From contig NC_086380.1 of NCBI RefSeq assembly GCF_036588685.1, positions 13,392,001 through 13,456,000 of the forward strand: a stretch of 64,000 nucleotides of DNA. Direction: 5' to 3'. Under the pieces are notes generated by a model. It was given only the letters and a program-made list of their open reading frames with translations, did no database searches and was not told the origin of the DNA. The DNA comes from Mytilus trossulus (lineage: Eukaryota). This document shows, piece after piece, positions 8,626 to 52,955 of this stretch. Numbering within the stretch: position 1 is the stretch's first letter; each line of letters opens with the position of its first letter. The position numbers were made by a program, and so were the translations under genes.

Positions 8626-9349
8626 TATACATCGGCAGGTTAACTGTTTTTGGCTTGATCACTCTAGTCTATGGTGTAGGTAAATGTTAATCCTCAAAAG
8701 CGGCGCGTTGGATGTTGACGTACGACTTCGGGGTTAATTTTCGTCGTTAAATCTATTTACCATTTGTTTATGCACTGACTATTACCAGTTTGAAATCATA
8801 CATTTTTATACTTTCAAGCAAAACCAAATAATTGTGCTATTATAACTGTGCTAAGACGAATTTCTTTTTAGTATGCATCTTTATTGAACCCTTAACGTGT
8901 AGAAAAGTGCATTATTATGCCTTATTAAAATATTTTGTTGTCGGTTTCGGTGACCCAGATCCTCAGACAGATCTGGAGGCCACCAGCCAAATATGCTTCA
9001 AACACAAATACAATTTACACATTTTGAGCATCATATATGTAATAATTTCCCTTTATTTTTGAATATTTATGAGTGGTATATATCATCAACCTTTAACAGA
9101 TAGCAAACAATATCGTAATTAATTGCAGGCTCAATTCATACCGTACTACAACATATACATTTTGTATTACTCATAAAATAAAATTAGGACAATGCAGAGT
9201 ATTAATGCCAACGCGACAACTTTCCAATAGAGACCAAAATGACGTAAACATTAGTAATCATATGTCATCGTACGGACTATGACAATAAACAAAGCTTATA
9301 TCGTACAGAAATATGTAAATCAATGCAAACTAGAAAATAACGGATTATA

Positions 9350-9920: not shown

Positions 9921-11759
9921 ACGTTAAGCACGTTATTGCGTCAATGCCGTGAAATGCGACAGAGCAATTTGATAAATTTTAGCTCTTCTATGAAAACTTA
10001 CTAGTTCAGCTTTATGAAATTTATATCCATAGATTAGGCAGGTATTACTGTTTCCAAAAATATCAAAAATATTCTTTTACTTTTCATAATAGTTTCAAAT
10101 AATGATACAAATATTACCAAAACGTCAAAAATATGCGTGTCAGACGTAACAAATTATTCCCAAAATAACTATTGCGGGAATTTTTGTGGTCTAATAAAAA
10201 GTTTAAAATCCGCGAAAATTCGCATGAATGATAGACGTCTAATATAATTTATGACGCCATTGCTGTTTTTTGTGTTGGTCGAACGGTAAAAAAATATTTT
10301 TTCAAAAACGAATATTCCTCGCCATGGTCAGGTTTCTAAAAATGGTAAATTATCAAACTTTATCGCTTTTTAAAATATCAGATGATATAAAATTTTGGTT
10401 TTATAAATTATTCCTACAAATGTGCTTAGATAGACCATTTCATACCCGAATTTTACAGCACTCGCACCACAAATAAAAACGCATTGGCCTCGGGAAAATG
10501 TCTTGCAAGATTGTCCAATATCGAATTTCGCCGCTTTTTATAAAAACACTGTCAGTTTCAACGTAATTTTATTAAGTATTCAATTTGTAGCATATAAAAC
10601 AGTGCTTTTTCGTAATTGTGCTTTCACCCCACAATACGATAACATACTTTTTGATAAGCTGTTAAGTCGAAATGACTTCGTTTTTTAACAAATCAAATGT
10701 CTTGCAAGTTTGTCCACTGAGCAATTTTCTTACGTTTTGAACGTTTTCGATTCGGGACGCTATACATATATGTGTTTTCAAATTATTTCTAAAAGTTTGT
10801 TCTTTGTTTTGGTATTAAACACCACATCATGTATAAGCGACATTTGTTGTATTTTATTGACCTGTCATCAAAGGTAGGAGAAGCCGGATATCAGGCGACC
10901 TAAGTTAAAATAGTTGCAATAACTGTCGATTAGGATCGGAGTCGAACAAATCTCGCCACGAGCGTATCTTAAAATTACCATGCTTTTTATCACTTTATAT
11001 AAACTCATTAGGCCAATCATCCCCCTAGGCCATCGAATTCGAAAGCAGTTCGTATTATCATATGATATATGAACAATATTTCATTGTTTTTAAATAACAA
11101 ATACGGTTCGATTTTATGTTTTAAGATCAGAGGACAAAACAAAATAACCAAATTACAAATTTCGAAAATAGATAGAATCATAGATATGAGTGGCCGTTCA
11201 TGTCATTTGCGTGATTATATACGCGTATATGATTTTATACGCGTAAATATACGCGTATATTGTGGTTTTCAACGCGTAAATTGTGGTTTTCAACGCGTAT
11301 ATTGTGGTTTTCAACGCGTATATTGTAGTTTTATACGCGTATATTGTTAAAATAAACACGTTTATACTAAAATCCAATTTATTTATCATAAACGCGTTAA
11401 TATACGCGTATGCAATCATTATATACGCGTTTATATACGCGTTAATTGCATAAATATACGCGTTACTATACGCGTATGAAATCATTATATACGCGTAAAT
11501 AAACATTCGTTTGTCTTTTTGTTTTAACCAATGAAAACTGCGTTTTAAACTAGTTTGTATATATATCACAATTGTCAGAATGAAGTGCGGTTCTTTCGAC
11601 CAACATACGTAATTAATCTCAAGACTTTACACCGTCTTATTTAAATTTCATTTATATGAAAGTTTGTTGCCTATAATTAAAATAATATCTAACAGTGTTT
11701 TTGGAATATTTGCTTATACTATTAAAGCATGGGTCCCTTTTCAAAAGTCTCCCAACTAT

Positions 11760-12130
11760 TTCCTTGATTTAGCAAGGTATTCTTTGATTGTTTTGGTACG
11801 TTTATACGCTATGATAGGTACCTGGGTGAAGATTTCACTACATTGTTTGTCTTTTTGCAGATTGCTCATTTTTTTCTTATAACCTTACTTAGATTTTTGT
11901 ACCATTGGATTATGTTTAGTAAGGAGGGTGAGTGGAACATTTTTTGTCCTATCGGCCTTTAATAAGGTTGTTTTTCTGCTTGTAGTATTTCTAACGTTTC
12001 TAATAACATACTGTTTTATTTTTACAGTATCATCTTTCAATATAAACTTATCTTGTAAGTTAGTTAAATTTCTATCTAACTCCTTGGTGTCACTATTATT
12101 TCTAATATAACGTATAGATTCACTTGCAAA
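11760..12130 (-). pseudogene. Penelope-like RT C-terminal/linker relic
   Basis: Translates to SESIRYIRNNSD..NVPLTLLTKHNP..(frameshift)..EIFTQVPIIAYKRTKTIKEYLAKS, matching the recalled PLE pattern E.LRY.R.NS / PIIAYRR.KNL. Confidence 0.7.
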
Positions 12131-12186
12131 CTGTAATACTTGTGAATGTGTGTTTTCGGATGTGCACTAGTGATTGGTAAATATTG

Positions 12187-12440
12187 ATACGTTTCATTTT
12201 TTTTAATATGTGATCTAACATCAAGGATTGCATTCTTATTGCCTATGATGTAACGTCTATGTACTCAAATATGAACATTAATAACTAAGAAGAAACAGTT
12301 ATCAATGCATTAGAATCAATTGACACACAAGAATATACTTTAAATATTCCCATCAAAAAAGTTTTAACGGCATCTGTTAAATTTATACTAAGAAACAATG
12401 AATTTGAATTTAATAGACAATTATACAAACAAATTATAGT
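12187..12440 (+). pseudogene. Penelope-like RT core relic
   Basis: DTFHF..ILIAYDVTSMYSN..KFILRNNEFEFNRQLYKQII with an in-frame stop. The DVxSxYxN and NNxFxFN..YKQ motifs are typical of PLE RT. Confidence 0.8.
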
Positions 12441-12489
12441 GGTACATTTTCTCCGACATGCACAGATGGTGTCTTCAACATGGACGTCA

Positions 12490-12762
12490 AGTTGGTTACT
12501 TATTCCTTTTTCGTTACTTATTCCCTATTCGTTACCTATTCCTTACTCATTCCCTATTCCCTATTCGTTACCTATTCGTTACTTATTCCCTATTCCCTAT
12601 CCGTTACCTATTCGTTACGTATTCCCTATTCCCTGTTCGTTACTTTTTCGTTATTACCTATTCGTTACGAATTCCCTATTACCTGTTCGTTACTTTTTCG
12701 TTATTACCTATTCGTTGCCTATTCGTTACTTATTACTTATTCCTTATTCGTTACTTATTCGA
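12490..12762. repeat. Low-complexity minisatellite of TATTCGTTACC / TATTCCC units
   Basis: Visible 7- and 11-bp units. It explains three overlapping spurious ORFs. Confidence 0.9.
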
Positions 12763-13216
12763 TTTTTGATATCCTTCCCCCTTTTTAATTGTGTACATTC
12801 TTATCTCTGGTTATAGTTCTAAATTTGTTGAGGTAAAATTACCTTTTAATGACCTCTTTATATGTGTTTGTGCTCAACCGATCCTGTTGCTTTATGTTCG
12901 ATACTTATTTGTTTCTTATATTGTTTTTATACGCTCTACCTTTTAAATGTTTTATATTCGTATGTTTGAAGATCTGGTTCTCGGTTCCAAGAGGTAAAAT
13001 CACCTTTTACCGCTTGTATAAAAATGAAGATGTGGTATGATCGACAATGAGAAAACTCCCCCACAACAGACCAAAATGACACAGAAATTAACAACCATAG
13101 GTCAGGATACGGTCTTCAACAATAAGCAAAGCCCATACCGCATGATCAGCCATAAAACATGTTAGCGGGGTGTACATGCACATCGTGTCGGAGCTTGACT
13201 AATACCTTGTTTATAA

Positions 13217-13535
13217 CACGCGTATTATACGTTGCACCTTTTAGAAAATGATTTTCAATTGTGTTCTTGTCTCTGGCGGTAACTATGTGTTCTGAGAGAT
13301 AGCATAACCCTATTACCGCGTATGTACCCGTTCCAGCGCTCGGTTAATAACCTGTTACTTATTCGTTCCTTATTCGCTTTTAATACGCGGGGTATATGTT
13401 GCACCTTGAAATAAATCGATTTTGAATTAGGTGCATGTCTCTGGTGGTAACTATGTGTTCTGAGAGGTGAAATAACCCGATTAGCGCGTATGTACCCGTT
13501 CCAGCGCTCGGTTAATGCCCTGTTACTTATTCGTT
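13217..13535. repeat. Two diverged tandem copies of a ~168-bp unit inside the foldback element
   Basis: GCGTATGTACCCGTTCCAGCGCTCGGTTAAT occurs near 13318 and 13486. Confidence 0.85.
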
Positions 13536-14702
13536 GGGAGACTTTTGAAAAGGGACCCATGCTTTAATAGTATAAGCAAATATTCCAGAAACACTGTTTT
13601 TTATTATTTTAATTATAGGCAACAAACTTTCATATAAATGCAATTTAAATAAAACGGTGTAAAGTCTTGAGATTAATTACGTATGTTGGTCGAACGAACC
13701 GCACTTCATTACAATTGTGATATACAAACTAGTTTAAGAACGCAGTTTTCATTGGTTAAAACAAAAAGACAAACGAATGTTTATTTACGCGTATAATTTT
13801 TATAATGATTTCATACGCGTATAGTAACGCGTATATTTATGCAATTAACGCGTATATAAACGCGTATATAATGATTGCATACGCGTATATTAACTCGTAT
13901 ATGATAAATAAATTGGATTTAAGTATAAACGTGTTTATTTTAACAATATACGCGTATAAAACTACAATATACGCGTTGAAAACCACAATATACGCGTTGA
14001 AACCCACAATATACGCGTATATTTACGCGTATAAAATCATATACGCGTATATAATCACGCAAATGACATGAACGGCCACTCATACATAGAAACCACGATA
14101 AGAACTGCAATATATAAAATTAGTTATAATCAAATAGAAAATGAATAATTATCTAAAATGAAATAAAAAACATATATGGTAATTTGTCAATAAATAGGTA
14201 AAATATTAATTACAGAACAAAAGAATTTCATATCCGAGACAGAGGGAATTAAATATTGTCAAGAGATAAAGAAACTAAAAAGAAAAGAGCAAAAAAATAA
14301 AAGTTACAATAAATATAAAGAAAAATACAACACAAGCCAAATCAGAAGTCCGAAAAGTTCATTTGCTTGCGTATCTACCAGTAGCAAATATTTCATACAT
14401 ATTCAAGACTTTGAAGTATCCATATCGATCAAAAATGATTACAATCAAAACGAACAAAGTATACTCGATTACCGACGTAAAACGTCAAATTTTGACGTTA
14501 CCAATTGGGACACAATATCGTGCGTAACGTCAGTGTACAAAGAAAAGGACAGAAACAAATACAGCAACATACGACAACCATATAGTTATAGGCTCCTGAC
14601 TAGAGTTTTTTTACTCCAAAAACTGAATCTGAAATTGAACCAAAAATGTTCGTTGTTGTATTGGCGTAGCTATGATGATTCTGCTATTTATAGTAATTGG
14701 AT

Positions 14703-17771: not shown

Positions 17772-18672
17772 CTGTAATAAGTTCTCTGGAAGGGTTTAAA
17801 GATCCTATTTCACATGTGGCACTTGTAAATTCAATGCATATACATTTTCAACTTGTTAAAATCAACTGTGCTATACTTAAGATACATATCTCTGTTCAGT
17901 TATGATTTTGTTGAGGGTCTATCGCATTGATGTAAATCTAAAATTGATTTTTTTAAATTCATACAGAATTGTTTTGATTTATGATAGCAAATGCCTATTG
18001 TAATAGATTATACTAAAGGTAAATAAACCCCAACATGAAGGTTTAAGTCAGGTCATACAACTATTGTGGTATATTTGTAATTTGTTGTGATTGGAAAATA
18101 AAAGCGTTCATGCAAACATCACAATCTTTTTATTCTTTCAATTTTATATAACAAATGCCATTAAAATTAAGAACAGAAAGTTCGTGCATATAAGTGCAAA
18201 AGATTGCACCATCTTCATGTTAAAGAATGGCATGTCCTTGTATATAATTCTTTCCTTATTAACTAATGCTTAATTTAATTTCCTTGCTTATGCGCTTTGA
18301 GCACGATTGCTTTTAACACGATATATATGAATTGATTAAGTTTTTATTCTGTTAAGATGAAAGAAATGTTTTTGATGTGAAGTAACCGGAAGAAGTCGCG
18401 TTACTTCATTGTTTTTGCAGTACGACCGCATGACAAAACGATAGATGTCATATTTGAGTTACAGTCATCAAAGCTGTGAATTTACGATAAAAATATGTAA
18501 AATATTATACTCAAGGACAAACCCTCAAGGTCATACTACTTTTTTCATAAATGTTTTACTTGTAGTGTGTTTGTTCCTGTTTCAAGACCATTCAATCATT
18601 GATACCAACATTATAATAGTTTTTATATTTTCAATTTAATATTAAAGATGGCCACTAGAATTCAGTAAAAAA

Positions 18673-19544
18673 TTTCACTGCTATGCAGATGACACACAGG
18701 TCTACATGACAATCAAACCGCTCGATGACTGGAACAACTACGTTAAAAGACTTGAATTGTGTTTGGAAGAAATTGGCATTTGGATGTCAAACAATCTGTT
18801 GAAACTAAACCAGGATAAAACGGAACTGATCGTCTTTTCATCGAAACATCAGTCGAAGAACATGCCTGTTTTCCAACTTAAAGTAGGTGAAAATGTCATC
18901 AATAGTGTCACATCGGTACGTAATCTTGGTGTTTATTTTGACAGCCGTCTTACCATGGAAAAACAAGTTGCGTCTATCGTAAAATCGTGTAATTACCATC
19001 TGTGCAACATTGGACGAATCCGACATTTCATCTCTACGGATGCTTGTAAAACTCTGGTTAATTCCCTTGTAACTTCCAAACTTGACTACGCAAATAGTCT
19101 ACTCTTCGGCGTTAACAAGTGTCAAATTGAAAGGTTACAGAGAGTTCAGAACACTGGAGCCCGTCTTGTTACGAAAACTAGGAAAAGAGAACACATTACA
19201 CCTATTCTCGCTGGACTGCTCTGGCTCCCTGTTGAATTCCGGCCAAAGTTCAAAATCCTTGTCTATACGTACACGGCACTGCAAGGAACTGCACCGGACT
19301 ATATACAGGAACTATTACATCTCCAAACAACAACTAGGGCACTACGATCAGAGGGCAGCCTTAGACTCGAACTGCCACATGTCACCGAACAAAAACATAC
19401 GGTGAAAGACAATTTAATCATGCTGCCGTTACCCTATGGAACAATCTACCTGTACAAATTCGTCACTCTAAATCTGTTCAGTGTTTTAAAAAACAATTGA
19501 AGACATATTTGTACAGACTTGCGTTTAATAAGCTGTTATCTTAA
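18673..19544 (+). pseudogene. LINE ORF2 reverse transcriptase fragment with a frameshift near 19385
   Basis: The homologous C-terminus RTKTYGERQFNHAAVTLWNNLP..FKKQLKTYLY continues in another frame to TAA at 19542-19544. Confidence 0.9.
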
Positions 19545-30330: not shown

Positions 30331-33179
30331 AGATGTTGATATTGAGTAAAAGACAAATGTAAAGGGTAGTATCATTTTTAATTCTGCTAATGGAAATAAG
30401 GATTATAGTTATAATGGGACAATCATAACTGGAAAAAAAGAGATTCGATGACAGGACCTAAAACGATTTACCAAAAATAAATCTGAGCAACACGAATCCC
30501 AAAAACGTTTTCAAAAGTCTAATTTGTAACATTTAAATTTTATTTCTGTACTTGTGTACACTATAGGACTACCTATGTGAACTAGTCAATAAAGGTACAT
30601 TTTTATAGACTTTCTTACATTAAAGTGTATATTTTTGGATTAACTGATTGATTTTCTATAATGATATTCATGCAGCACCAAATTAGAAAAGTTCGTCCTC
30701 AATGTAGTCAAATTTATAAATTGATCTTTCTTATATTGCAGAAACGGATCATTATGCATGATCTTAATTATATAATAATAACAATAACACACTAGTGCAC
30801 CATTAACCTCTGCATCCATAAATTATATAACCTGTTGTTTCATTAATGTAGTTATTCATCATATACTGTATCGAAACTCAACACTATAGTGCAAGTCCTG
30901 CTCATATATGCGCACGGAAGTGCAAGTTTAATAAACCATAAATGTTAGATATAGGTTATAAAGTTAACTATGCAAAATAAAAGCTTTCTTTTTCAAGAAA
31001 AAATAGCACATTAAATTAAGTTGGTTTAGGTACATTGTATATCTACCATTTACTGGGATACAATTAAACAGCAACAAGTTCACAACTACGACCACGTACA
31101 TGTACTGAATGGTATTTTAGAATATAGAAACAAACCTCTATGCATTGCTATGTAAATTATAAAAGAATCTTAAAGCCAGACATCGGCTTACCAAGTGCAT
31201 TGTTTTTGTTTTATTGTCTTTCCAAAATCTCAGTCCATTCTGAACCTGCTGTGAATAATTTCAGAAGCAGAAACGGCCACGCGCACTGAGATAAGTATCA
31301 TACTTTAGGATATTTTTAGAACAATTATATCTTTTTAACGAAGCAGATTTTCAAAGCTGTCATTTTATTTATTTATTCAAAAGCAAATAATAATCAGAGG
31401 ATTATTGAAACATTCAGGTTTAAATTGTAACCACCATGCTAATCTTGTGCGAATTATCCAGCTTTACATTATATAATCTTACGCCAGAAACATGCACCAA
31501 GAAAATGTTCCCTGTATTTAACTATCCTTCTCTATCTATACTCAGATCTTTGATTAATCTAATAGCTCAGGACTAATTTCATTTCATCAAAAATAGCTGT
31601 CGAGGGAATATGTTTTCCAAAATTAGTTTACTTTGAATAAATCTTCTATATAATCTGCTATCTTTTGGCCTTTTCACCTATGTCAGTTTGTCAGTAATAT
31701 CAATAAGGAACTTTATAAGATTGAAAAATTCTAAATATTTTTATCCAACGTATCAAAGTGATGTAATATGATAGCTGCTTGGTCCTAGATTTTATCTCAT
31801 TCTTAACCATTCTAAACAGTAAGAGTAAATTTGATTAAATTTCTCTCGTGGAGCTACCCGCCATATCCATCGAATCGACTTAGAAAAACAGACACCACTT
31901 TAAACCGTTGACTACACTGTTTATCCACTCGGTAAACCTCGTATTTAATGTTAGAAAATTGAGCTCGAGTAGATATCGTACTGGGGGTTTTGGTAGAATA
32001 ATTGTATATATGTCTTAAATTGAGAATGAAAATGGAAAATATGTCAAAGAGACAACAACCCGGTCAATGAGTAATTAACAGCCGAAGGTCACCAAAGGGT
32101 CTTTAACGCAGCGAGAAAATTCCGCAAACGGAGGTGGGCCTCAACTGGCTTCTAAACAAAACCGTGTAAAAGTACAGTGAAAATGGACGTTATTTCAAAC
32201 TCCAAAATATACAAATAAAGAAAATGAAGAAATAAAGAGACTAAAAACAGGCGCAAAAATGCAGCGGGGATAGAACATGTTCAGACAATGCTAATATATC
32301 GGGGTCGAATGTGTTTTCGTGCTTTTTTTGTAACTTTTGAACATTTTACAATCGTTTCTTTTATTATCTTGTATTGTATTTTCGAGCAGCTAGACAATTA
32401 AATGATACTGTAAAAAATGATAATTTAAAACATCTCATTATTAATGAATACAGTATATGCTTTCCATATTAATTGATAAACAACAAATACAATACGAATG
32501 TATGTTTCACGAGATTGACATTTGCACATTCGATTCACATCAGAGATATGTTTATACATAATAAAGTTAATTATTCAATTAAAGTTTAATGACCCAGGTG
32601 CAACCTTTTGGAAAAAACAATTAAGTGATACATGACTTTTACCAGAAGATCCCTGACCTTTCTAGTTTAGGAGTAAGTTGCTTGTAAAAACAATATACAC
32701 ATCAGCATTGCTCAAAACCAGATGATACGTTTTAACAGTAAACACGTTTTTTTTCTTGTTCTACATTTATTTCGTTTATTGTTTTTGTTGCTTTTATTTT
32801 ATTCTAATCAATGTGTTTCAAAGTAACGTTTATAAAACGAAACTCAAAATAATTAAATTACTAGAAAAAGATGGATTTTGGCAACGGCAAAAATATTAAA
32901 TGACAATATATTTTTAACGACAAAACATATTATAAATTTCCTAATTTCTTTCGGAACTGTATACCCGTACACCAATGCGAAAACAGAACATATTTACCTT
33001 CAAGTTGAAGAGTTTGTTTATTAATACGCATTCGCCTGAACTATTTCTGGGGACCACGGGTCCTATTCGAGCGACAGAAACTTCCTTCTGCATACCGTAC
33101 ACAGGTTTTGATGAATGATTGAATTTCTATTTGCATTTGTTTTTACCTTTTATTTGTCTTCTGGTCAATGTTATTATAA

Positions 33180-33730
33180 AAAAGAAGATCTGGTATGATT
33201 GCCAAAGATACAACTCTCCAAAAGAGACAAAATGACACAAAAATTAACGGCTATAGTTCACCGTACGGCCTTCAACAATGAGAAAAGCCCATACTTCATA
33301 GTCAGCTATAAAAGCAACCAGAGGACAAATGTAAAACAATTCAAACTAGAAAAGTACCGGACTAATTACCAAAAAAAAAATGAACGAAAACAAACATATA
33401 ACACATCAACAAATGACAAACACTGCATTATAGGCTCCTGACTTGGGACAGGCACAAACGTGCATAATGTGGCTGGGATAAACATGTTAGAGAGATCATA
33501 ACTCTCCCCTAACCTGGGACAGTGGTGTAACAGTGCAACATATGAATGAACTATAAAAAAGCAGTTGAAAAAAGGTTTAACTCATCGGATGGCAACACAT
33601 AGACATACTTCACAGTGTGGACGTGGTCGGGTACTTGTATATCCCAACAACAAAAAGACACTAATTACAGACCTGAGAGTACTCGTAGTTAATGACAGCA
33701 CGTTCAAAGCCACTAACAGCTAATTAAAAA
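33180..33730 (+). repeat. Longest copy of dispersed repeat family A
   Basis: Shorter copies at ~1500, 6343(-), 9190, 13020, 22970, 23505(-), 51060 and 59162. Confidence 0.85.
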
Positions 33731-35730: not shown

Positions 35731-37607
35731 CAATTTATTTTTTTCGAGAAAGTGTATATCATATACGAGATGAACTACCAACGACGATAGTGTCAACTTC
35801 AAATAATATCTATTACATCTTTCTTGTTGGCATCATTGATAGATTAAAAATTTGTATAAAACAATAAGAAGATGAATGTTTGTTATAAGTTCGTTGTGTT
35901 GTAGGTCTGTGTTGTTCCTTTAAACATAGTTCTGACTGCTTTGTCCCTCTTCTTGTCCGAGTACCCCATTATGTCTGTTTGGGTAAGCCCTACACGCAGT
36001 TTAGTCAATATAACAGAATTATTAACAACTGTCACGCAAGTGGAAGGTTTAGCTAGCCATAAAATTAAAACAATCCACCATTTTATACGGCTGTGCCTGT
36101 AGCTAATCAGAAATATGGAAGTTGGTTTTCACCTGTTACTTTGATTGTTAGCTTTTAATTTTCTAAGTTTTTGTAGACTTCACACATTTTGATTTGCCCT
36201 TGAGTTCGTTTTATTGTTATAATTTTTCAGAGAAGAATTCATGATCTATACATTGTTTCTTTCTGTATTGTTTTGTTTCTTTTGTCGTGCTTTGTTTCGA
36301 TCTAATGAACACCTGTTCAAAAGACTGTGACTGTTATAGTTATTCTTTTTAATGTATTGGCGAAACTATTTTGCACCTAGCATACCTTTTTGTCTGTTTT
36401 GAAAAGGGGAACCCGTCCTGGTTTCCATGTCATGTTTTGTCAATTACTAGTTTTTTATGTCATTTTCAGTGCCAGTGTTCAGAGCTGATGGTATAGCTTC
36501 CATAATCTCATTTGGCATTATCAATATATTTTATAATCCTAAACAAAGAACTCATGTCGATAATAGACCAATAGACATATTATGACAGCAGACAAATCCG
36601 CTAAGAAAACTACAACACTTGAAAGCAGATGCTCGCAAACAAAAAAAGATGGTAGTCACTAAAAAAATGAAACTGAAGTCGGTTATTCCTGCTCTACCCG
36701 TATTCTATACATTCACCTGTGATTAAATTTTAGTTGTTTCTCTAGTACTATAGACATGTGTAAATAAGTGGTATTCATTTTTATGACTATGACACACATT
36801 TACGCCCGGAGTATCAGCTTTATATACATACAATAAATCTACATCGAATGCTAGTATTTTAGAAATGTCACTTATGCAAGTATTTCATCGTTCTTAATGG
36901 CACGGAAATAAACTAAGATATGTATAGTACAAATGTCACGTCAGTAACGGTAGACCACTGTTAGTTAGAATATAAGCTTTGACAAGTGTCAGTCCTGATA
37001 CGAGTTCCTCTCTTCATTCCACTGCAAAATTAATATGACTATGTTTTTTTCTTTCTAGAAACAGAAAGTTTGGCAGTAAAAGCATAAACAATGGAAAATC
37101 AGACATAACAAAATAATTAAAATGAACAAAAACCAATGTACACAAAAGCAGTAGCCATAAAACCTTATTCTAATCTCTACGAGGTCGATTTCACCCACCA
37201 AAAACGGGATAGAACTCCAAAATGGTAATCAGTTTTAAAATAGTTGTATCATATTGACAATTGTGTTGATATAGAGTTATATGACAATTTAACTGACATG
37301 ATACGTATTACTTCACAAGTTACTTTTTTGATGCGTTTGAAACTGAAAAAAAACCCCAAAGTATGTCTAAAACAACTACATAAATCTGAAAGGTGAAGGT
37401 ATAATAATTGATTATTGCCCCTAGAAGTTAAGAATAAAAGCATCGGCTATAAATCTATCAAATAATATTCTTCGGATAATTACAAGACATTAAATTTTAC
37501 AGATATAATGATCAGTCTTAGTATTTTTTTGTATTGCGGTAGATATTTGCCTCATCGCTGCCTTCTTTCATCAATTGGGAAAATCCACAGTAGCCTGAGT
37601 TTTAGAT

Positions 37608-37893
37608 AAACTCAGCATAAATACCGGGATTACAATTTCATATTTACGCAGACGCGCGTTTCGTCTACACAAGACTCATCAGTTTAGCTCGATTCCAAAA
37701 GAGTTATAAAGGCTAAAACAAGTACGAAGTTGAAGAGCATTGAGGACCAACATTCCTGAAAGTTTTGCCAAATACAGCTAAGGTTATCTATTCCTGAGGT
37801 AGGAAATCCTTAGTTTTTTCAAAAATGCAAAGTTTCTCAACAGATAATTTATAACTATGAACATATCGATGATAACTCAAGACAACACAGAAG
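37608..37893 (-). mobile_element. Family C element carrying a hammerhead ribozyme (Penelope-LTR/retrozyme-like)
   Basis: Absent from the paralogous unit near 45100. Homologous copies at ~42053, 50095, 51575 and 52670. Confidence 0.8.
37644..37690 (-). ncRNA. Minimal type I hammerhead ribozyme motif (core intact, stem I degraded)
   Basis: Minus strand reads CUGAUGA-GUCU UGUGU AGAC-GAAAC-GCGC-GUC. Confidence 0.8.
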
Positions 37894-38599
37894 TTGATGA
37901 CGTCATTATTCTTTAGATAATTTTCATGGAAAAGATACTAGTTTTTATCGTACCTTCTCCTTTGTCTAAATCCAATTTATGCATTCATCAAACTATGCAT
38001 TTAGTACAATGTTTTTCTTCAAATTTAATTTATCAAAGTAAGAATAATATTATTAAACTATTTGATTTGAAAACCACATCTAAAGTGCAGCAAACCAACC
38101 ATATTAATAGAAATAGAAACAGATATGAGAAGTGGATTATTTGCTAAAGTTAAATACATTTTCGATGGGGTGTGCCATATACGGAGAGTAAACTGCTTAG
38201 TGAACAGTAAACCGCCAAAACATTGTAAAATTGCCTGCACTGTTTGTATCAGTTGACGTTTTGAATTTTCTATTAAGCAGAAGGGTATTCCATATTAGCG
38301 GTTACGTTGTTCGAACACCTTTTTCATTCACTGTGAGTAATATTGATGCGGTATCTTCTGCAGTTATTTTCTTTGTGCTTGTGGCTTTGCTCCTTATTAT
38401 ACCATCATTACACAGTTGAATCTACTCTTAAATAACGTTCCGTCGTGCAAGTCTGTTGTCGTCCTGTTGTAGCTTGGAGGTGCATACTTTTTATTGTGTG
38501 TTTTATTTTATGACATATGGTATAGATAGGTCAAGAGGAGACTTTTTCGTAAGGAAAATTGATTTAAACCACCACATTATATGGAAGATCAGGTTAACT

Positions 38600-41237
38600 G
38601 GGACAATACCCCTAATGCGCCTTGAAATGAGGAACACAAAAGTCACGTGTAAACAAAAAATCTCTGTGTAGTGATATTTGACCCATTTCTATGATACACA
38701 AATAACTGAGCTGAACCATTAGTGTTAATTTAGAAAATAAGAGAACACAGAATAAATGTGTAAAAACCATGGAGCTATGAAATGTGTTCAAAGTATTAAA
38801 ATTTCAAAGAACTTATTGTGTTAAAATTGGGATTTTTTACCATGAGGAGCGACATCGCAAAAGGATACTCGGGGTTTGCTAAATTACGGAAAAATGAATC
38901 ACACTTCGTACCCCGAAAATTTAACCACATATGTAAAAATGTCTCAGCTTCGAAACAAGCCATCATACATATACAAGTTTACGATATGGGCTGAGCAACA
39001 GAAGAAAACGTTACCATTACGGCCTATGGAATAACAATTGCGCATATTGCCCCATCTTGTGAGAAAAAATCCAGAGATGTCTTAAGCTTATTTCACCTTG
39101 TACACCACAGAAAATTGTTAAAATGATGGTTAGTAGTTTTTTATTTATACCTAGTTATCATAAATGATTTCAGATAAATATTATTGATAAAGAACAGCAA
39201 AAATTCAATAAAATTTTCACTTTTAAATGCATTACTGGCACGGGGCTGAACACTTTTTTTAGGCACAGTCATAACTTTGTTTACCCCCGAGAGATCCGAA
39301 ATGAATTGTTTATTCAATTGAAAAAGGCAAGAAAAAACTTACATGTAATATAAATAAATTGTAAGTAAACATGACACAATATAGTCTTTGTTATGCAATT
39401 ATCACTCTGGTCTACAGGAATAGCTTATAATCAAGGGAGATAACACACTTCACACGAGTAAAGTGAGATACATCATACATGTGCTTTTATCCAATGATTT
39501 GACCCTGGTCAGTAGATATCATATGCAAATAAACAGAAAAAAAACATGTACATGTATGAAGAAAATCACGAATTACTATTGTTAATGCACATGAGCAAAA
39601 CACAAGATATTGTCATTTCTCAATGAAAAAGGGGGAGGGTCAAACCTTCTTGAACACAATATTGCTATTCAACTACATGTATTAAGCTAGTTAGCTACTA
39701 CTCATTGCTTCTAATATAAACAGTTTAAATGAAGGTGGCTAAGCCACAAGGGAGAAGCATTTTTCTTTCTTTGTGATAAAATTTTCAAGAATTAGATTTT
39801 TCTCTCTCAATAATACTTATGTATTTAAATTAAATGATAACACAGTTTGAGTTAATTTTTTTTGTCTTATTTCAGTTCCAGACATATCATTACTTTTAAA
39901 TATGAGATGACAAACTAAAGGTTTTAAAAAGTCCTGAATAACTGGTAAGCATTTTGATTTATTAGGTAAGCTCTAAATTATTTATTTATGGTATTTGTGC
40001 AAATGAAATTACAGTCGGTATGTTAGAAATATGCTTATATGAAAACTGTTGCTATATATGGTCTTGCTATTAAATGAAAAGGCTTGGTTACTGGTCTTTT
40101 CGACTCAACATTTCGAGTTAAATCTTGCGTCAACTGATTCTCATGTAACACTGCAAACTCTATTTAGCACTATTTTGATCTGTCATTATTTAATGACGCC
40201 ATAATACGTGTGATGTCATGTGGATTTCTCACTGATAAAGGGTTTTCATTGAAAAACATGTAAAAAGCCTTTTTTTCTCAAATAGAATTATGTGAATGGA
40301 CAAGTTTTGAAAATTTGTACTTCATTGCACTCTAATTACATGATAAGAATTACTTTCCCAGTAGTTTTGAGGGGTTTCCACAGTATTATATACCAGATGT
40401 CCACTAGTAAGAATAGTTATTTTGCTGGTGTTTTTTTTATGAAATCTACATTTTTGCATAATTTCTCTGTCAAAATGCACTTTAAGACACAAGAAAATGT
40501 TATAGAATGCTTTAATAGGGTCTGTGTATTGTTATTTAAGGTTATCATCAGAAGTTTTGTCCTTGTTTTGACTAGTAAAGGTATACTGGAAGAAATTAAT
40601 TATACATGCACGTTGTATTAAAAATAAATGAATATAGCGATAAAAGTGTCATTGCCATATAGTGCTGAAATGACTTTATTTTTTTTCAGAAATGGACAAA
40701 AATACACAGATTTATTCAGAATGTCATACCGATGAAGATCACCTAAAAATATTTGGAAAAATCAGAACTATGGATTTCAATATGGGACAATACCCCTAAT
40801 GCGCCTTGAAATGAGGAACACAAAAGTCACGTGTAAACAAAAAATCTCTGTGTAGTGATATTTGACCCATTTCTATGATAAACAAATAACTGAGCTGAAC
40901 CATTAGTGTTAATTTAGAAAATAAGGGAACACAGAATAAATGTGTAAAAACCATGGAGCTATGAAATGTGTTCAAAGTATTAAAATTTCAAAGAACTTAT
41001 TGTGTTAAAATTGGGATTTTTTACCATGAGGAGCGACATCGCAAAAGGATACTCGGGGTTTGCTAAATTACGGAAAAATGAATCACACTTCGTACCCCGA
41101 AAATTTAACCACATATGTAAAAATGTCTCAGCTTCGAAACAAGCCATCATACATATACAAGTTTACGATATGGGCTGAGCAACAGAAGAAAACGTTACCA
41201 TTACGGCCTATGGAATAACAATTGCGCATATTGCCCC
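38600..41237. mobile_element. Composite element: two 454-bp direct repeats (38600-39053, 40784-41237) around 1.73 kb of cargo, AACT TSD
   Basis: Repeats differ at only two positions seen by eye. Each has imperfect GGGACAATA/TATTGCCCC ends. AACT at 38596-38599 and 41238-41241. Confidence 0.85.
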
Positions 41238-44200
41238 AACTCTCTGAACCGTGTGAAGTTCATTGTCGTTGTTTTTTAGTTTGTCTGTTTTCGGTTGAGT
41301 CAGGTGTACATGTTGTTCGTGGGGGTTGTCGAATGTACTTTCCAATATTTTGTTAATAAGTTGTATTATTTTTTTCTCTGTATTCTTATTTTACGCAGGT
41401 TCTTTTGTGATACTTTATCGAGATCAACTTGCTGGAAACTGGTTTGCTTTACAAGATTAGTGGGCAGACGATCGCAAACCTCTGTGAAATACAGTAAGAC
41501 AATAGACAAATCATTACAAAGTATAGGGAATTCGGTTATTTCTGCCTCACCTGTATTATTATATCTTCATAAGTGAACCCGATTTTTGTGACTATGACAC
41601 ACATTTACGCCCTGCAAATCAGCCGTATATATGTACAATAAATCTTCATCGAAAGGTAGTACTCATGGAATGTCACGTATGCAAGTATCTCATCGTTTTT
41701 TTTTATATTATTCTAAATATCATACATTCACTTAAAAAAGCTTAGATATGTGCTGACAAGTGTCAAGTATGTTAACGTATCCATGAACTGGCATTTGACT
41801 ACTGCTAATAATCAATGAACTTTGACAACTGCAAGTCGGATGGAGATATGTGTTCTTTTTCGTTTTAATTTTCACAGCTAAAAGTTATCATAATTATACA
41901 AAAACTAGAAAAGATACAAGGTAGACAGTACAAACAAAGGACAATTGAGCAACAGACATTTGAATGAACAAAAGGAAGAAAGTCGAATACAAAACAGTAG
42001 ACATGAACTAAACTTTGATCACCACGATTCCTCAATCCAAAAACGGGGTAGATAGTTATCAAAGGTATAAGTCTTATAATTTAATACGCCAGACGCACGT
42101 TTCGTCTTCATAAGACATATCAGTTACGCCTAGATCAAAAAAGTTATAAAGCCATCAAGTACAAAGTTGAAGGGCATTGAGGAACTATGAAATGTCAGAA
42201 AATTTTAACTAGTTTTACTATATTGACAATTGTGTTGATTATAGAGGTATATGACAATCTAACTAATTTCATACGTTTCGCCTTACTCGTTACTTTTCTT
42301 AATGTGTTTGAAACTGAAATTTACCCAAAGCGTGTATAAACAGGCTTTATAAATATATAAACGGAAGATATGTCCAGACCACTTAATGGCTCATGGAACT
42401 TAAAAAATGAAAAGCATCGATTTAAATAGCAAAATTATCTATAAAAAAACACCCTTCAGATATTTACAAAACATTTGATCCGACAGATTTTATGATCATT
42501 TTATATATCTTTTAATTAAACGTTAAACGTTTGCCTTTTAGCTTCTTTCTTCCATTGGTTGGAAAACTTCTACAGTAGCTTGATCTTTTTTTTTAGATAT
42601 TTCATTAATGTTTAGATAAATTTCACTATCATTTGACTATTTACAGGTGCCACATATGAAACAGGAGCTGCTTACCCTCCCGGAGCAATTGCGATCATCT
42701 TCTAGTTTTTGGTGGGGTTTGTGTTGCTTAGTCTTTAGTTCTCTATGTTGTGTCGCGTGTAATATTATTTCTCTGTTTGTCGCATATTATATACATAATC
42801 ACATTAATATTGTTAAAAAATGAACCGTATAGCTTATAGAAGCAAACATTTACAAAGTCAAAGCTGGGAAGTATTTCAATTTCAATCTTCAGACGTTCAC
42901 ATAATGTGATATGATAAGATTTCTCAGATTTCTGATGACTAAATGGAAGAGGAAATGCACAGTGATGCGATGAATTTATCTCAATAGTTTTAGAGTAATA
43001 TTGGCTTATCATTTTGTGATAATAAACAAACATAATATATATGTAATTAAGCGTAGAATTTAAAATCCGTAATGGTCTGTGTCAGCATTTACAGAAATAT
43101 AAAAGCAATTCAAATGGGAGGTTAATTATTTGCCAGAGTTTTACATTATCGGTTGGATTTATAATTTACAGAGTGTAAACTTCTAAGTGGACAGTAAACC
43201 GTCAACACATGGTGAAATTGTTTGCCAGGTCTCACGGCCACAAAACTTTCAAGCATGTTTTTTACTCAGACTCGAAAATCAACCATTCAAATTGCTCGAT
43301 TTCATTTTTCGAGCATGATTTTTGTGCTCAGTGCATTGAGCAAAGTTTTATGCCTTCAAGGCCAGAACTTTGATGTTTTGACTCTTTTCTAGATCACAGC
43401 TACCAATATCAAGATTACAGGACGGTATATTTTAACATGTGTGGTTTAGTTGTTGAATTCACTTTTTATTCACTGTTTATTTTTGTTTATACGTTTTTAG
43501 TTTTTGTTTTTTATTATGTCATTATAATTAAGTTGGCTCTGCTTTCAAATATCATTTTGTCGTTCAAGACTGTAGTCATCCTATTGTAGCTTGAATGTGA
43601 ATAATTTTTATTGTGTTTCATTTTTATGACATATGGCTTAAGGAGGACTTGTTCCTGACGAAAACTGTTATACCCCTTCCACATTTTATATAGATACATA
43701 GTCACACTATCGGACTCGTGTGCTGTGCATTGGTTATAGTTTCGGAAGATTCTGGTGGTTGTGGTCGAATGTACTTTCCAATACTTTGGAAGTTATAGTA
43801 ATCTTTAGTTGTATCATTTTTACTTACTGATTCTAATTCTACAGGAATTCTTTTGTGTAACTTAATCGAGATTGACTTGCGGGATAATCTCTAAACTGGT
43901 TTGCACTACAAGATAAGACAGCAGTCAATCGCAAAACTCCGCAAAAGACGATAGACGATAAACGAATCATTACAAACTGAAAGTAAAATCGGTCATTCTT
44001 CCTTCAAATATATTATACATATTCACATGTGATAACCTTGTAGTTCCGCTAGTACTACATGCATTTTGAACATGTATAAAAACGTGGTACCGATGTATTG
44101 GTCTATTGTTTTTTTTTTTCACACACATTTTCGCCCTGATTACCAGCCTGATATGCATAAAACAAATCAACATCAAAGGGTAGTATTTTTGAAATTTCAC

Positions 44201-45827
44201 TTATGCGGGTATCTTCTCGTTTATTTGACACACGCGTTCTTAATTGCAAGAAAATAAACTAAGATATGTACTGTACAAATATCAACTCAATGATATCTGT
44301 AACGTGTGAATATCAGTATACCCGGTATTATCATTGAACTAGTATATATTTGTTTCGGGGCCAGCTGAAGGACGCCTCCGGGTGCGGGAATTCTCGTTTC
44401 ATTGACGACATGTTGGTGACCTTCTGCTGTTTTGTTTTCTATGGTCGGGTTATTGTCTCTTTGATACATTCCCCATTTCCATTCTCGATTTTATCACTCT
44501 TACTACGAATATACAATTTGACAACTGTGAATATAGATAGGTGTTCTCTTCGTTATTTCACAGCAAAGTTACCATTTATTTATAATTTTTGAAAAAGAAA
44601 AAGCATGAAACAATGGAGAATCAGACCAGTTGATGAACAAAAAAAACCCAATCACACAAAAACAGTAGTCATAATACCAATCACCACTAATTCACCAACC
44701 AAAAAAACGGGGTAAAATTCTGTTATGGTCAAACTATTTGAACTAGTTTAACGGTATTGACAACTGTGTTGATAATAGAGTTATATGACAATTTAAATAT
44801 AAACACTAGTTACTGTTGATGTGTTTGAACTAAAAATAATCCGAAGCATGTATAAACAGACTTAATAGATCTGAAAGGTGAAGGTATAATAATGACACTT
44901 TATGGCCCCTAGAACTTACGAATAATAAGCATCGATTGTAAATCGATCAAATACTACCCTCGAATAATTAAAAAGACATTGGATTTGACAGATATCATGA
45001 TCTGTGTTTGTGGTTTTTTTTTTATTTTGCTAGCTGTTTGCCTTATGACTTCTTTCTTTTATTAATTTAAAAACTTCCATAGTACCTTGTTGTTTTAGAT
45101 GTTGTCATTAATCTTTAGATAAGTGTCAAGGGCTAGATATGAGTTTTTATAGTACCTTCTTATTTGGCTAATTCCAATGTATGCATTCATCAAACAATGC
45201 ATTTTATAGAACAATTTATTTTTCTTCAAATTTTAATAATTAATCAAGGTAAGAATATTTTACTATACTACTAATATTGAAAACCAAATACAAAGGGCAA
45301 TTCACGAACGCTACAAAGCAAAAATATAAGAAAGTGGACGAGAAAAAGTACCAGTTCATACTTTTTTTTGCTTAATAATACAGATATGGTCAGACACATG
45401 TTTTGAAATTTACTAAGGAGTCTTCCGCCTTTTATACTTCAAATAAATTGCGATACTTTGGCGACTGGACATGCTTGATGCAGAATGCATGTTACTGCAG
45501 ACAGTTTTGAAATCAGAAATAGATTATGCGTGGTATTTATAGTTTCTGGTGCTTTCCATTTTGCCCTTTTTGAAAAAAGATTAAAAAAAGTAAGAGCAGT
45601 TTAGCTAACACGTAAAGTCCTCACCAGAACACTTATAGAGAAATATAAGCAAATTATATTACACGTTAATTCCTGAACAGAACGCTTATAGAGTTGATTT
45701 AATTTTCATTTTCAATAAAACGATATTTAAATGTGTTCTTATAAAAACAAATGACTAAAAGTCGTTATTTTATATATCCAAATGTAGAATAATTAGGTGA
45801 CTATGTTCTGGATTATGCATGTGATCA

Positions 45828-45961
45828 TGACGTAATAAATGTTATTTGCATATCATGTGACTAATTCCTTCATTTCTCATGTAAATTCTTCCTGACGTAA
45901 TAATGTAATTTGCATATCATATGACTATTTTCTTCATTTCTCATGTAAATTCTTCCTGACG
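45828..45961. repeat. Two tandem ~65-bp units, each with TGACGTAA and the octamer ATTTGCAT
   Basis: TGACGTAA at 45828 and 45893. ATTTGCAT at 45844 and 45908. Confidence 0.85.
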
Positions 45962-48900
45962 CTTGTTATGAGTGCAATTTATATATATCACGTGACACGT
46001 TTTCTGAACTAACTAGCTAATCTGCTCGTCTTTTTTTTCCTTATTTTTTCTTCTTCATTAAAGCAAAATGGTCAGCATAAAAAACAGTAAATACAACACA
46101 AAAGCAACACGTAATGTTCTGAAAGTACACTTATAGAATTGATTTAATTTCATTTTCAATAAAACAAATATTCAAATATATTTTCATAAAAACAATTGAT
46201 GAATACTATAACTAACACAAAGTCTTCAGAGTTTGGACTAACTATTGGCAAAAGGCACTTTTTTATGACATTAACACTTTAACGTAAATCATTAGTGTGT
46301 TTTGTGGTCTACCTGTCTTGTCTCATATTATAAACGATCATACAAATTGTATATATCGCATATAATATACCTAATAACATTTGTTAAATATTGTTAATAA
46401 ATGAAAATTATAACTTATAAAAGCAAACACTTACAAAGTTAAAGCTGGAAAATACTCCAATATCAATCACACAATGTTATATGTTCATATTTCTCAGGTT
46501 TCCGATTATTAATTGCTGAAGGAAATGCACAGTGATGCGATGAATTTATCTCAGTAATTTTAGGGTAATATTGGCTTATCATTTTTTGTAATAATAAACA
46601 AACATAATAGACGTGTAATTGAGCGCATAATTTAGACTCAGTAGTACACTTTGTAAGTATTTACAGAAATAGAAAGGAAATTGGAAGTTATTTATTTGCA
46701 AGGTTTTTACATTTTTGGTGGGGTTTGTCATGTAAAGAGTGAAAAATAAACTGGCAAAAACATTGAAAAGATGTCTGAATTGAAAAAACAAAATGAACGT
46801 GAATTCGGTTATTCCTACTTCACCGATATCCTATATATTTATCTGTGATTACATTGTAGTTACTCTAGTACTATAAACATGTGAACATAATTGATACCGA
46901 ATTTTGCGACTATAACATATAGGGCGTAAATGTGTGTCATAGTCACAAAAAATGAATATAAAATGAATCTACATCGAATGCTAGGATTTGCGCAATGTTA
47001 ATTCTGCAAGTATCTCAACGTTCGTTTGACACAAGCGTTTTTTACATACAAGGACATACAATAAGATATGTCCAGTACAAATGTCAAGTCGGTGATATCT
47101 TTAACGTATGAATACTGGTATACCACTGTTATTAAGAATATGCACGTTGACACTTGTCCTTTCATATACTAAAATGTGTTCCTTTCGTTACTTCACAGCA
47201 AAGTCACCATAAATTTTGTGTGAACAGATGCAAGGTGGGCATAAATAGCATAAGGCACATGTGGATAAACAAAGGAAGAAAGACGAAGAGAAAAGAATAC
47301 GAAAGACATAATATTTAATTTGCATCAAAACTAATCCAACTAAAAACATGATCGAAACAGTCAGAAAATTGAATTTTATTGTACCATATTGATAATTGTG
47401 CTAAAATTAGAGATAATTTAATAACAAAACCGTCCTTAGTCCAATCGTTTACAGATTGTTCGTTATCCTGCTCTTCATTTGAGTTAATGGGGCATACTTA
47501 TGTGGAAGCAGACAAAAGAAAGCTGATTATTACATCAAATAGTAATATCATATTTTTTAAGACTCCTAAAACATGCTTCAACAAAGTCAGTGTATTCGTA
47601 GATAGTAGATGTGTTTGTGTTCTGTTAAATTGTTCCCTGTAAAATTGTTATACGATGATGAATGATGTACCCATATTTAGACTATTTTAATCATTGTGTC
47701 TGTTTAATTTACGCATCAATGTAAATAAAACGGAATTTGACGAGACTGTTATTAAAGTGAGAGGGTTAGCGCTATTGAACCAGGTTTAATCCACCATTTT
47801 CTACATTTGAAAATGCCTGTGCCAAGTCAGGAATATAACAGTTCTTTTTCATTCGTTTTTGATGCGTTTTGTTATTTGATTTTGCCATGTCATTACGGAC
47901 TTTCCGAATTGATTTTCCTCTAAGTTCAGTATTTTTGTGATTTTACTTTTTAATAGTACCAATGCATCAGATTAAAAAAGTGTATGTATATAACAACAGA
48001 CAAAACAGAACATGTGTCACATGGTAAGGCGGACTCAGATGAAGCTTGGTACCAATAAAAATGCTCTTATTTTTAGTTGCTAAGTAAATTTGACGAAAAA
48101 AGTATTTTACATGTCGAAAAAAACCCAAGTATGAGACAAAAACTCTGTTGATTAGTAACAATAATAAAAAAAATAGTCGCGCATAATAAGTAACTAATAA
48201 AGAGTTTTGATTTGTAGCTTAAAAATGTGACAAAGATATGTTGAGCTTTAAAGCTTGTTGATCGTGACCTAAAACTGAAAAGCTTTTAATTTTTTTATTA
48301 CATTTAATTGAAAATAAAACAAACTGTTTAAAAGCTATACGAAGGCCACAATATATAAAAAAAGAATATAATGAAAAGAACATATCTGAGGTTAGATTTT
48401 TGTCTATATACTAATCACCTGCAAAACACAATACTTACTTATTCTGACACCGATATAGATGTACCTGTCGATTACAATGTATAGCCAATTATGATTGCGG
48501 GGGAGAGATAAGTATGCATAATAATAATCATCATTCTGGCATGTAATGTTAAACATACCACCCTGGCTGATCTTCAAATAGATTAAAGAACTAACCTAAA
48601 ACATTTAGATAGGTAAGTAAGATGTAATGATCCAGTTTGTTGGTGAAGGAAATATATAATGGTTAAAAAGTGAAGAAAAGTAGTATACAATGAAGCTATA
48701 ATCCCTCTTAAAATTAGAAAATGTGAACAAACATCAAGGTTCACTTAGGGCATAAAAACACCTATAAGTTTCAGCTTTATTATAAAATTTGAAACTGACA
48801 TATTTGGTTCTTAACTGGAACTATTTCAAAAGCAATACTACTTTTTTAAAATAAATCTCTTCATAGAAGTACATATGGCTTCAAAATTTGTACATTTTGA

Positions 48901-50170: not shown

Positions 50171-52955
50171 TATATCAAAATAGTTATAAAGCCAAACAAG
50201 TAAAAAGTTGAAGAGCATTAAGGATCCTTTAAATAACTTTCTTTGTCTTTATATACTAGTATATATCATAGTCTACCCTTGGGTTCGGAATGGAAAAGAG
50301 TCGATACCGATATCTTCTATTGACCTGAGTCGGTACATTTGTTAGAGACATGTTGCAAAACATCATATCCAACTTATTATATTTTCAGTAGCAGTTTAAA
50401 CTTCTTTGGCCTCATAAGTTAAATCACCTTTGAAGAACCTATATTGGTATTATTGATCGATTGTCATTTTAAACTTGTATTTTTGCAAAATTATGGTTTT
50501 TGGTTTATTCATCAATATTGCAGTGTTTAAAGCAACTATTATTATAATTCAAAAATAAAACTTACGCTTTCTCAGTATTTGATTTAGTGGTTGGAGGAAG
50601 GGCGTTTATATATTCGTTTTTGTGTGTACATGTTGAGTTTCTCCCCTAATGAATCTTACACTTGTTAAAAAATGCCTTTTTTATAACATAAACATTTGAA
50701 ATTAAACATTGCACTCGCTAATGATAAGTAATTTCATAGGGTTCTTAAAATGAAACATGTTCTTTCAGGATTAATTTTATGAAAAATAATTGCTCAAATA
50801 TATAAATGCGGCAACACTATGGGTATAATTATAGCAATTAATCACTCTGCACTCTAAAGTGTCTTAAACATTAGATCTATTTAATTTTCTTATGTTAGAT
50901 GTTCAATTAATTTTTACAAAAATAGATATAATTTTAGTTTATAATTCTAATTCCCTCATGAGGAGATTACTACTCTAAATAACTATGAGCTAAACTTGAT
51001 TCAGTATTATATTAAACTTAAATGTGTTTTAAGCAATTAAATCGAAGACAAAATATAAAAAAGAGAAGATGTGGTATGATTGCCAATGAGACAACTATCC
51101 ACAAAAGACCAAAATGACACAAACATTATCAATTATAGGTCACAGTACGGCCTTCAACAATGAGCAAAGCCCATACGGCACATAGTCAGCTATAAAAGGC
51201 ACCGATAAGACAATGTAAAACAATTCAAGCGAGAAAACTAACTGCCTTGTTTATTTAAAAATATGAACGAAAAACAAATATGTAACACATAAACAAACGA
51301 CAACCACTGAATTACATGCTCCTAGTCAATGGAGGACCAAATTGAACAAAACATTTTATGGCTTAATAATATATATGTAAAGACGTTTTAACAGACCTCA
51401 CACATATGTTTCATTGAAGCTAAAGACAACTAAAATGTTATGAAAAACACAGAACTTATACACAATCCCGATGCACGCTTAAGGACAACCATAATCTAAT
51501 CAATATATTAATTAAAATGATAAATTCTCATGTCAAGAGGTAAAAATGTGCCTGATTATCGGCCAACTGTTTTGATAACTCATCATAGATACCAGGATTA
51601 CAGTTAATACTTACGCCCTCGCCCGTTTCGTATTAAAAAAACTCATCAGTGACGCTGGAATAAAAAAATGTAAAAAAGGTCAAACAAAGAACGAAGTTGA
51701 AGAGCATTGAGGACAAAAAATTCCTTAAGGTTTTGCCAAATACAGTTAAGGTAAATTATTCCTGAGGTAGAAAAGCCTTAGTTTTTCAAAAATATCAAAG
51801 ATATTTTTAACCGTTTATTTATAATTATGAAATTATCAAGTTCTGACTCATCATGCTCATGGGCTAATGCTATTAACTTGTAATATACGATTTTAGATTA
51901 CACACGGTATGCATTGTTGTACCTTCTTCATTGATAGGCTTAGATCACAGCAATAGCTTCATACAATAATTTTTATATGAAATATGTCTGTATTCAATAG
52001 AAAATGTGGGGTTTTGTTAAAATAAATAGCTTTACAGTAAACATATCAGGTATTTTCATAAAAAAAAAAGATCGAGCTTGCATGCTAGTTAAATAAGCGT
52101 GTCACTGTTTCTGAATTCCTGTTGTGTCTGCCATTGATTGAATATGTTGGTTGTTGTTCTGTTGTTTGCATGTTGTGTCGACTATAACATAATATGTTTG
52201 TGTGCGTTTCTCAGTGATATTTGTCCTTACGTGGGTTTGTGCTGTATTTCTATCACGTAGTATTGTCATTTACGCGATATTGTTTTAACATTGTCATAAA
52301 ACGGCAAGTTTAGCTAGCCAATAAACCAGATTTTACCACCAGTTTTTTTCTTTCTATAAATGTCTGTACCAAGTCTGGAACACGGCAGTTGTTGTCAAAT
52401 AGATCGGTTATATGTATGTTTGCGTCTTGGTTTTTTGCACTTCAGTTTTCATGTTGTCCCTTTGTTTCCTTCTTATAGTTGATGTGTTTTTTCTTGGTTT
52501 TAGTTTGTAACCCGGATTTATTTCTCTCACTCAATTTATGACTTTCAAACACCGGAATACTTCTGTTATATTAATATACAACACAGATGATCGATTTTCA
52601 TATACATGATCGGTTTGTGCGCACGTACGTGTACATGTAAATAAAAGTCACCAACATTACCTTGCTAATAATTGTGTACGCCAGACGCAAGTTTCATCAA
52701 CAGAGAACATACGATAGATGTTTGAAAACATGTAAATGAAACGCCATATTGAAGAGCATTTAGGAGAAAAAATCCGAAAGCCAAATAAAGACAGCTACGA
52801 CTATCTATTCATTGGGAGAAATAACATTGTTTGTACTAATTCATCCTATCTAGAATGACAAAAATCTTTAAAAGATACAGAAACAATAAAATATCTCTCT
52901 TCAGTACTGAATTCTCCAAATACTCAAGAAATACAAATTGACGGGGTTTAACTAG

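Follow-up and report, generated by a model that had tools for sequence, protein, structure and literature searches.

The window considered here is a stretch of 64,000 nucleotides from the mussel Mytilus trossulus (assembly GCF_036588685.1, contig NC_086380.1, positions 13,392,001 to 13,456,000 of the forward strand), and it contains, at positions 38600-41237, a repetitive element of 2,638 bp that is very probably a non-autonomous member of KolobokP, a group of DNA transposons bounded by long terminal direct repeats (LTDRs). In the published orientation of KolobokP the element lies on the minus strand and consists of a 5′ LTDR (40784-41237), a multi-copy internal region (INT) of 1,730 bp (39054-40783), and a 3′ LTDR (38600-39053). 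The two repeats, each 454 bp long and with short imperfect inverted ends, are offset by 2,184 bp and differ at two internal positions, 38697 and 38742; they begin with GGGAC and end with GCCCC, so that eight of the first nine bases pair, pairing being weak beyond them, and the GG..CC ends agree with the RR..YY termini of KolobokP. An initial annotation of this locus had described two 454-bp direct repeats with about two mismatches, each with its own imperfect inverted ends, and both observations are borne out. The surrounding DNA is AT-rich (about 31% GC), non-coding and of animal type, with no long frames near the element.

The 4-mers outside the element are identical (AACT at 38596-38599 and at 41238-41241), while the inner ones, ATCT and ATAT, differ, exactly as first annotated; at the local base composition, two 4-mers would match by chance with a probability of 0.007. 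AACT is therefore regarded as the target site duplication (TSD), on the basis of the outer 4-mers and, for the left copy, also of an alignment with an empty site. When the element was excised in silico and one AACT was kept, the joined flanks aligned across the junction to 43503-44032 of the plus strand (67% identity, 576 columns, E 5e-60), an old paralogue of the target without the element; the unit near 43680-43730 had thus been correctly read as an empty site. Since this paralogue is only 67% identical, it fixes neither the length of the duplication nor the age of the insertion. Moreover, the identity of the repeats extends one base outward on each side (T before, A after), so that TG..CA ends can also be read, and by eye the paralogue alignment fits this reading, with a 2-base gap, about equally well. 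A duplication outside the whole element, within the 3-5 bp typical of KolobokP, is present in the one copy examined. This copy sits inside one of four old, degenerate tandem paralogous blocks (about 36050-47060), which are 67-85% alike and spaced by 2.5-4.8 kb, and in which no coding frame was seen.

In their description of the group, Kojima & Bao 2022 (Mob DNA 13:24; PMC9587614) reported 228 KolobokP families, in which an INT lies between two direct repeats of about 450 or about 660 bp; the repeats have their own short inverted ends and RR..YY termini, 3-5-bp duplications are produced, solo repeats and multimers occur, and many families are non-autonomous, those of oyster measuring 1,738-3,261 bp (PMC9587614). 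A repeat of 454 bp belongs to the 450-bp class and the total length lies within the non-autonomous range, so the element fits a non-autonomous KolobokP. The consensus file of that paper (1.06 million characters, lines wrapped at 70 letters) was explored by term search, and identities to published families were mostly counted by eye, ungapped, with the element read on the minus strand. Three repeat motifs, of 23, 12 and 11 nt, were each found exactly twice in the file, only in KolobokP-2_MyGa-LTDR and KolobokP-H1_MyEd-LTDR; they are placed at LTDR positions 41, 103 and 148, identical in the element and in both mussel LTDRs (the published side located by eye). Two of the six terms of this search gave no match, both of which straddle line breaks in the KolobokP-2_MyGa and H1_MyEd entries. 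Against KolobokP-2_MyGa-LTDR, the first 140 bases show 120 matches, the 70 that follow show 44, and the final 38 show 33. Both terminal 11-mers match the same LTDR at 10 of 11 bases, in agreement with Repbase practice, by which non-autonomous elements are assigned on their terminal 11 bases with at most one mismatch (PMC4455052). The exact end and INT motifs of the element were absent from the KolobokP supplements by term search, their entries being wrapped at 70 letters; the missing ends indicate a sister family of the published ones.

The INT shows a corresponding relationship. It starts with ATATT and ends with TCACAAGAT, as in KolobokP-2_MyGa-I, to which INT 63-116 matches at 45 of 54 bases, and its 5′ part (40082-40783, minus strand) is homologous by eye to KolobokP-1/2_MyGa-I. 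A cluster of TGACGTCA-like motifs is located at INT ~566-605, at a similar distance from the start as in the relatives, and matches them at about 33 of 44 bases when a 22-bp insertion, common in the sequencing run X1, is allowed; a 10-mer of the first transposase codons follows at INT 693, again at a similar distance in the relatives. Besides a decayed transposase start, the INT retains a decayed promoter. No transposase or His-Me nuclease frame was found in the INT; the longest stop-free frame of the element encodes 111 aa, no His-Cys-box motif is present, and the coding frames of autonomous KolobokP elements are therefore missing. No Rfam match was obtained at E 0.1 within 38000-42000, and no tRNA in the 64-kb window.

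The inner part was found repeatedly in independent data. Among metagenome contigs scanned for the first 22 bases of the repeat, one match was obtained, L001 (1,787 bp), in which a repeat stands between two stretches of inner part, 97.8-99.0% identical to the window and bordered by the same inner 4-mers, ATAT and ATCT; this INT-LTDR-INT layout may be a collapsed assembly. L001 lacks about 540 bp present in the window and diverges after 39228, and its repeat copy has 4-6 differences from those of the element. Pattern scans of viral contigs gave no match; prokaryote genomes gave none at first and then five matches to an 18-mer, of 18-19 bases only, attributable to chance. At least half of the sampled words of 38300-41550 were present in 12 of 24 sequencing runs, some very small and carrying several organism labels; the two repeats account for just 28% of this stretch. 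Four of the 24 runs (X1, X5, X7 and X15) were mapped as contigs on 38150-40810 with a likeness cut-off of 85%. The whole INT was covered in all four, and in X5 and X15 it was found without the flank. The median summed contig depth of the INT relative to the flank was about 390x in X1 and about 136x in X7, while that of the repeat relative to the INT was 7x in X1 and 21x in X7, with 2 expected, sister families being included; as contig depth is not copy number and an 85% likeness admits sister families, the INT is read only as highly repeated. Deletion variants at 40108-40650 (the L001 type) and at 39203-39763 recur in three of the four runs, the repeat end exits into dissimilar sequence in 17 contigs of X1 and 18 of X7, and contigs in which the inner part runs on into the repeat start were found in X5 and X15. 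A left-flank contig of X7 departs at 38587 into 69 letters unlike the repeat, a hint of an empty allele that was not counted.

Taken together, these data suggest, with a probability of about 0.93, that the element is a 2,638-bp non-autonomous KolobokP related to KolobokP-1/2_MyGa and H1_MyEd. Its ancestor was probably an autonomous element that lost the transposase and nuclease genes, and a Kolobok transposase acting in trans probably inserted it in one piece. What had been taken for cargo is apparently an integral, repeated portion of the element and not host DNA picked up on the way. The inner flanks ATAT and ATCT do not match because they are the inherited, family-wide ends of the INT. In the proposed mechanism, the Kolobok transposase of an autonomous relative would pair the two outermost short inverted ends, and the whole LTDR-INT-LTDR would be inserted as a unit, producing the AACT duplication at the outer flanks only and carrying ATAT and ATCT along. 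Solo LTDRs and multimers may then arise by unequal crossover, by recombination between repeats or by excision of one repeat; these steps, as well as the pairing of the outer ends, are inferred from the family description. In an equivalent route from the same paper, an LTDR-INT circle would integrate into a resident solo LTDR; the resulting sequence is the same, and the two routes are indistinguishable here. The unequal-crossover model of the KolobokP paper still awaits experiment (PMC13565253). The earlier proposal that the 2.6 kb recently moved as one composite-like unit holds insofar as the DNA transposon is built like a composite and has the duplication at its outer ends; movement as a unit is likely, and a recent date is plausible (two differences between the repeats, 4-6 from the L001 copy).

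Several points weigh against this assignment. There is no transposase in the element, so that the superfamily is assigned by DNA homology, mostly on counts by eye, and an autonomous partner with exactly this repeat was not found among the KolobokP supplements, contigs and runs compared. Two central stretches, at ~240-415 of the repeat and at ~39229-40080 of the INT (about 850 bp), do not clearly resemble the published families by eye, and the latter may be captured DNA. Both outer flanks were seen for this copy alone, so that the 4-bp duplication can be stated for it only and not for the family, and the measure of abundance, a summed contig depth, takes in sister families and gives no copy number.

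The closest described systems are the autonomous KolobokP-2_MyGa (5,108 bp) and KolobokP-H1_MyEd (2,664 bp), which resemble the element in the LTDR-INT-LTDR layout, in repeats of about 455 bp and in GG..CC termini (PMC9587614). The inverted ends are unusually short in all three, being 7 bp in both published elements and 8 of 9 bases here, and KolobokP-H1_MyEd, with a 455-bp LTDR, a 4-bp TSD and a 7-bp terminal inverted repeat (TIR), also agrees with the element in TSD length (PMC9587614). Repeat ends, INT start and end, the motif cluster and the transposase start are common to the element and both relatives, at similar INT positions. The element differs from KolobokP-2_MyGa in having no transposase, and in a repeat that is about 78% identical by eye over its first 210 bases and little alike in the middle; KolobokP-H1_MyEd, although near-equal in size, has kept its nuclease frame (by eye) and has a different INT, whereas the element has no His-Me nuclease. 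The INT middle of the element is unlike that of either. The autonomous KolobokP-1_MyGa (5,127 bp; LTDRs of 456/455 bp, 4-bp TSD, 6-bp TIR; PMC9587614) agrees with the element, by eye, at 116 positions among the first 140 of the repeat, while its INT 3′ end and repeat middle are unlike those of the element; the coordinate file includes some LTDR pairs of this family with a spacing of about 2.2 kb, which suggests short derivatives of similar size. Composite-like eukaryotic DNA transposons with direct end repeats of about 450 bp, many of them in mussels, were already published in 2022; the present element adds to them an abundant non-autonomous family that is apparently not yet listed and is of use in annotating repeats.

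The RNA run X15 also contained contigs of a putative spliced RNA from the inner part. A first intron (39129-39875, plus strand, GT..AG, 747 bp) is supported by one contig joint and a loose end, the donor being inferred from the contig letters; it is followed by a middle exon of 68 nt (39876-39943) and by a second intron (39944-40689, GT..AG, 746 bp), supported by one contig joint. Single contigs join 39943 to 40689 and, by letters, 39128 to 39876, with good splice signals at both junctions. These joints suggest an RNA of three exons, read from the strand opposite to the transposase, which is the nuclease strand of autonomous elements. The position of the last acceptor is common to KolobokP-2_MyGa-I and H1_MyEd-I, and one base off in 1_MyGa-I (by eye). 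The last exon contains a frame of 35 codons (40692-40799, plus strand), which extends into the right repeat and is not kept in the consensus of the relatives. The 35-aa frame had one match among longer proteins and two among 1.84 billion representative proteins, both element-like and one of them from a contig equal in length to L001; no host gene or relative of it outside this element was found in the 1.84 billion. A second version of the frame (P0002, on a 951-bp contig) is 86% identical, with mild substitutions only. Since one run only is involved, its contigs are uninformative on strand, start and level, and the consensus of the relatives has not preserved the frame, the spliced RNA is to be considered a lead only. 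No discussion of KolobokP transcripts was met in the main-text sections consulted of Kojima & Bao 2022 (PMC9587614), or among the 12 of 19 places listed by a term search there. It can be speculated, although this seems distinctly improbable, that the KolobokP clade makes a spliced nuclease-strand RNA that crosses the whole INT and ends in the far repeat, with an acceptor at INT 94-97 as in autonomous KolobokP-1/2_MyGa, in which the intron would take out the transposase gene in antisense; such an RNA would represent a control layer or micro-peptide not described before, still expressed by a gene-less, high-copy family that may also carry captured DNA. If true, an antisense spliced RNA with an acceptor common to autonomous relatives would give a handle on KolobokP nuclease expression.

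Of the other explanations, the one that best withstands these data, rather unlikely and at the same time compatible with a KolobokP identity, is that a KolobokP derivative acquired the INT middle (~39229-40080) by Pack-type capture, the source being either another transposon or a gene of the host. By eye the middle is unlike KolobokP-1/2_MyGa-I and H1_MyEd-I, a spliced exon lies within it, and it includes a truncated asymmetric hairpin (39239-39340), whose left arm is mostly lost and whose junction carries 10 different bases; its counterpart is complete in L001 12-150, with arms of about 45 bp around a 25-bp core, again asymmetric. The hairpin possibly represents the joined ends of another transposon. 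A Crypton origin of the hairpin was also considered; passages of PMC3212892 neither support nor exclude it. However, non-coding sequence diverges fast in this clade, the repeat middle being equally unalignable, so that an undescribed autonomous parent could explain the same picture; furthermore, no donor was found, and the 35-aa frame has no relative beyond its element-like matches among 1.84 billion proteins. By eye, 39198-39233 faintly resembles the beginning of the relatives' nuclease gene (24 of 36 bases), a similarity too thin to count.

It is very improbable that the structure is a chance composite, in which two independent Sola2-type copies of a miniature inverted-repeat transposable element (MITE) mobilized single-copy host DNA, as the initial annotation had proposed. 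A 4-bp duplication on the outside only and GGG ends agree with this idea, and Sola2 elements do make AT-rich 4-bp duplications (PMC3627910), a feature that the element shares but that is not diagnostic; the GRG rule, given in the initial annotation, was not confirmed in print, since no paper on Sola2 GRG termini with TSD was found in the literature search. Neither a Sola2 transposase nor Sola2 homology was seen in the element, whose repeat is instead homologous to KolobokP LTDRs, so that the Sola2 assignment is not supported. Both ends of the INT are likewise homologous to the KolobokP internal region, and copies of the INT are numerous, those of L001 and the four runs having identical inner flanks. 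The inner flanks are thus conserved INT ends, common to KolobokP-2_MyGa-I and L001, which speaks against independent MITEs with chance cargo; nor does a route for shuffling host DNA follow, the inner part being multi-copy and tied to the repeat. Bacterial composite transposons (insertion sequence, cargo, insertion sequence) likewise comprise two direct repeats, each bounded by inverted ends of its own, and are moved by the outer ends; however, their flanking insertion sequences encode the transposase and their cargo is opportunistic, whereas the inner part of the element is inherited as a constant component of the family. Among the papers listed in the literature search, long direct end repeats on DNA transposons were described only for KolobokP, the other papers dealing, by their titles, with long terminal repeat (LTR) retroelements or being general surveys.

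A non-autonomous LTR retroelement with TG..CA ends (38599-41238), of the terminal-repeat retrotransposon in miniature (TRIM) or large retrotransposon derivative (LARD) type, is just as improbable. The identity of the repeats does reach TG..CA and spliced RNA covers the inner part, but no duplication is found outside TG..CA, no TGG primer site follows either repeat, and the purine fractions at the expected polypurine tract are 0.47 and 0.33; moreover, the spliced introns are still in the genomic DNA, and the homology is to KolobokP. The initial annotation had itself listed this alternative and the missing TSD, primer site and purine tract, and the LTR reading indeed fails on these grounds. An assembly error duplicating the repeat is equally hard to credit, even though no read or contig was seen to span the whole element, because the two copies differ at two sites, the outer duplication and the empty paralogue fit a true insertion, and the inner junctions occur in independent data, both of them in L001 and that of inner part and repeat in contigs of X5 and X15.

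Other repeats are present in the window, outside the KolobokP element. At 11185-14084 lies a 2.9-kb element with inverted ends of about 570 bp (91-98% identical in pieces), rich in ACGCGT repeats, which starts with TATGA, has termini of the form TAT..ATA and carries a perfect duplication of 6 bp, CATAGA; the 6-bp duplication and the TAY ends recall IS3EU, for which TAYGG..CCRTA termini are described in fungi (PMC12730594). Satellite arrays with units of 28 bp and 26 bp are found at 69-1216 and from 27896 onward, respectively, and dispersed copies of another common interspersed repeat are found on both strands at 6375-6537, 9175-9307, 13017-13157, 33172-33314 and 51050-51217. The longest stop-free frame of the window, of 284 aa, is at 18646-19500 on the plus strand.

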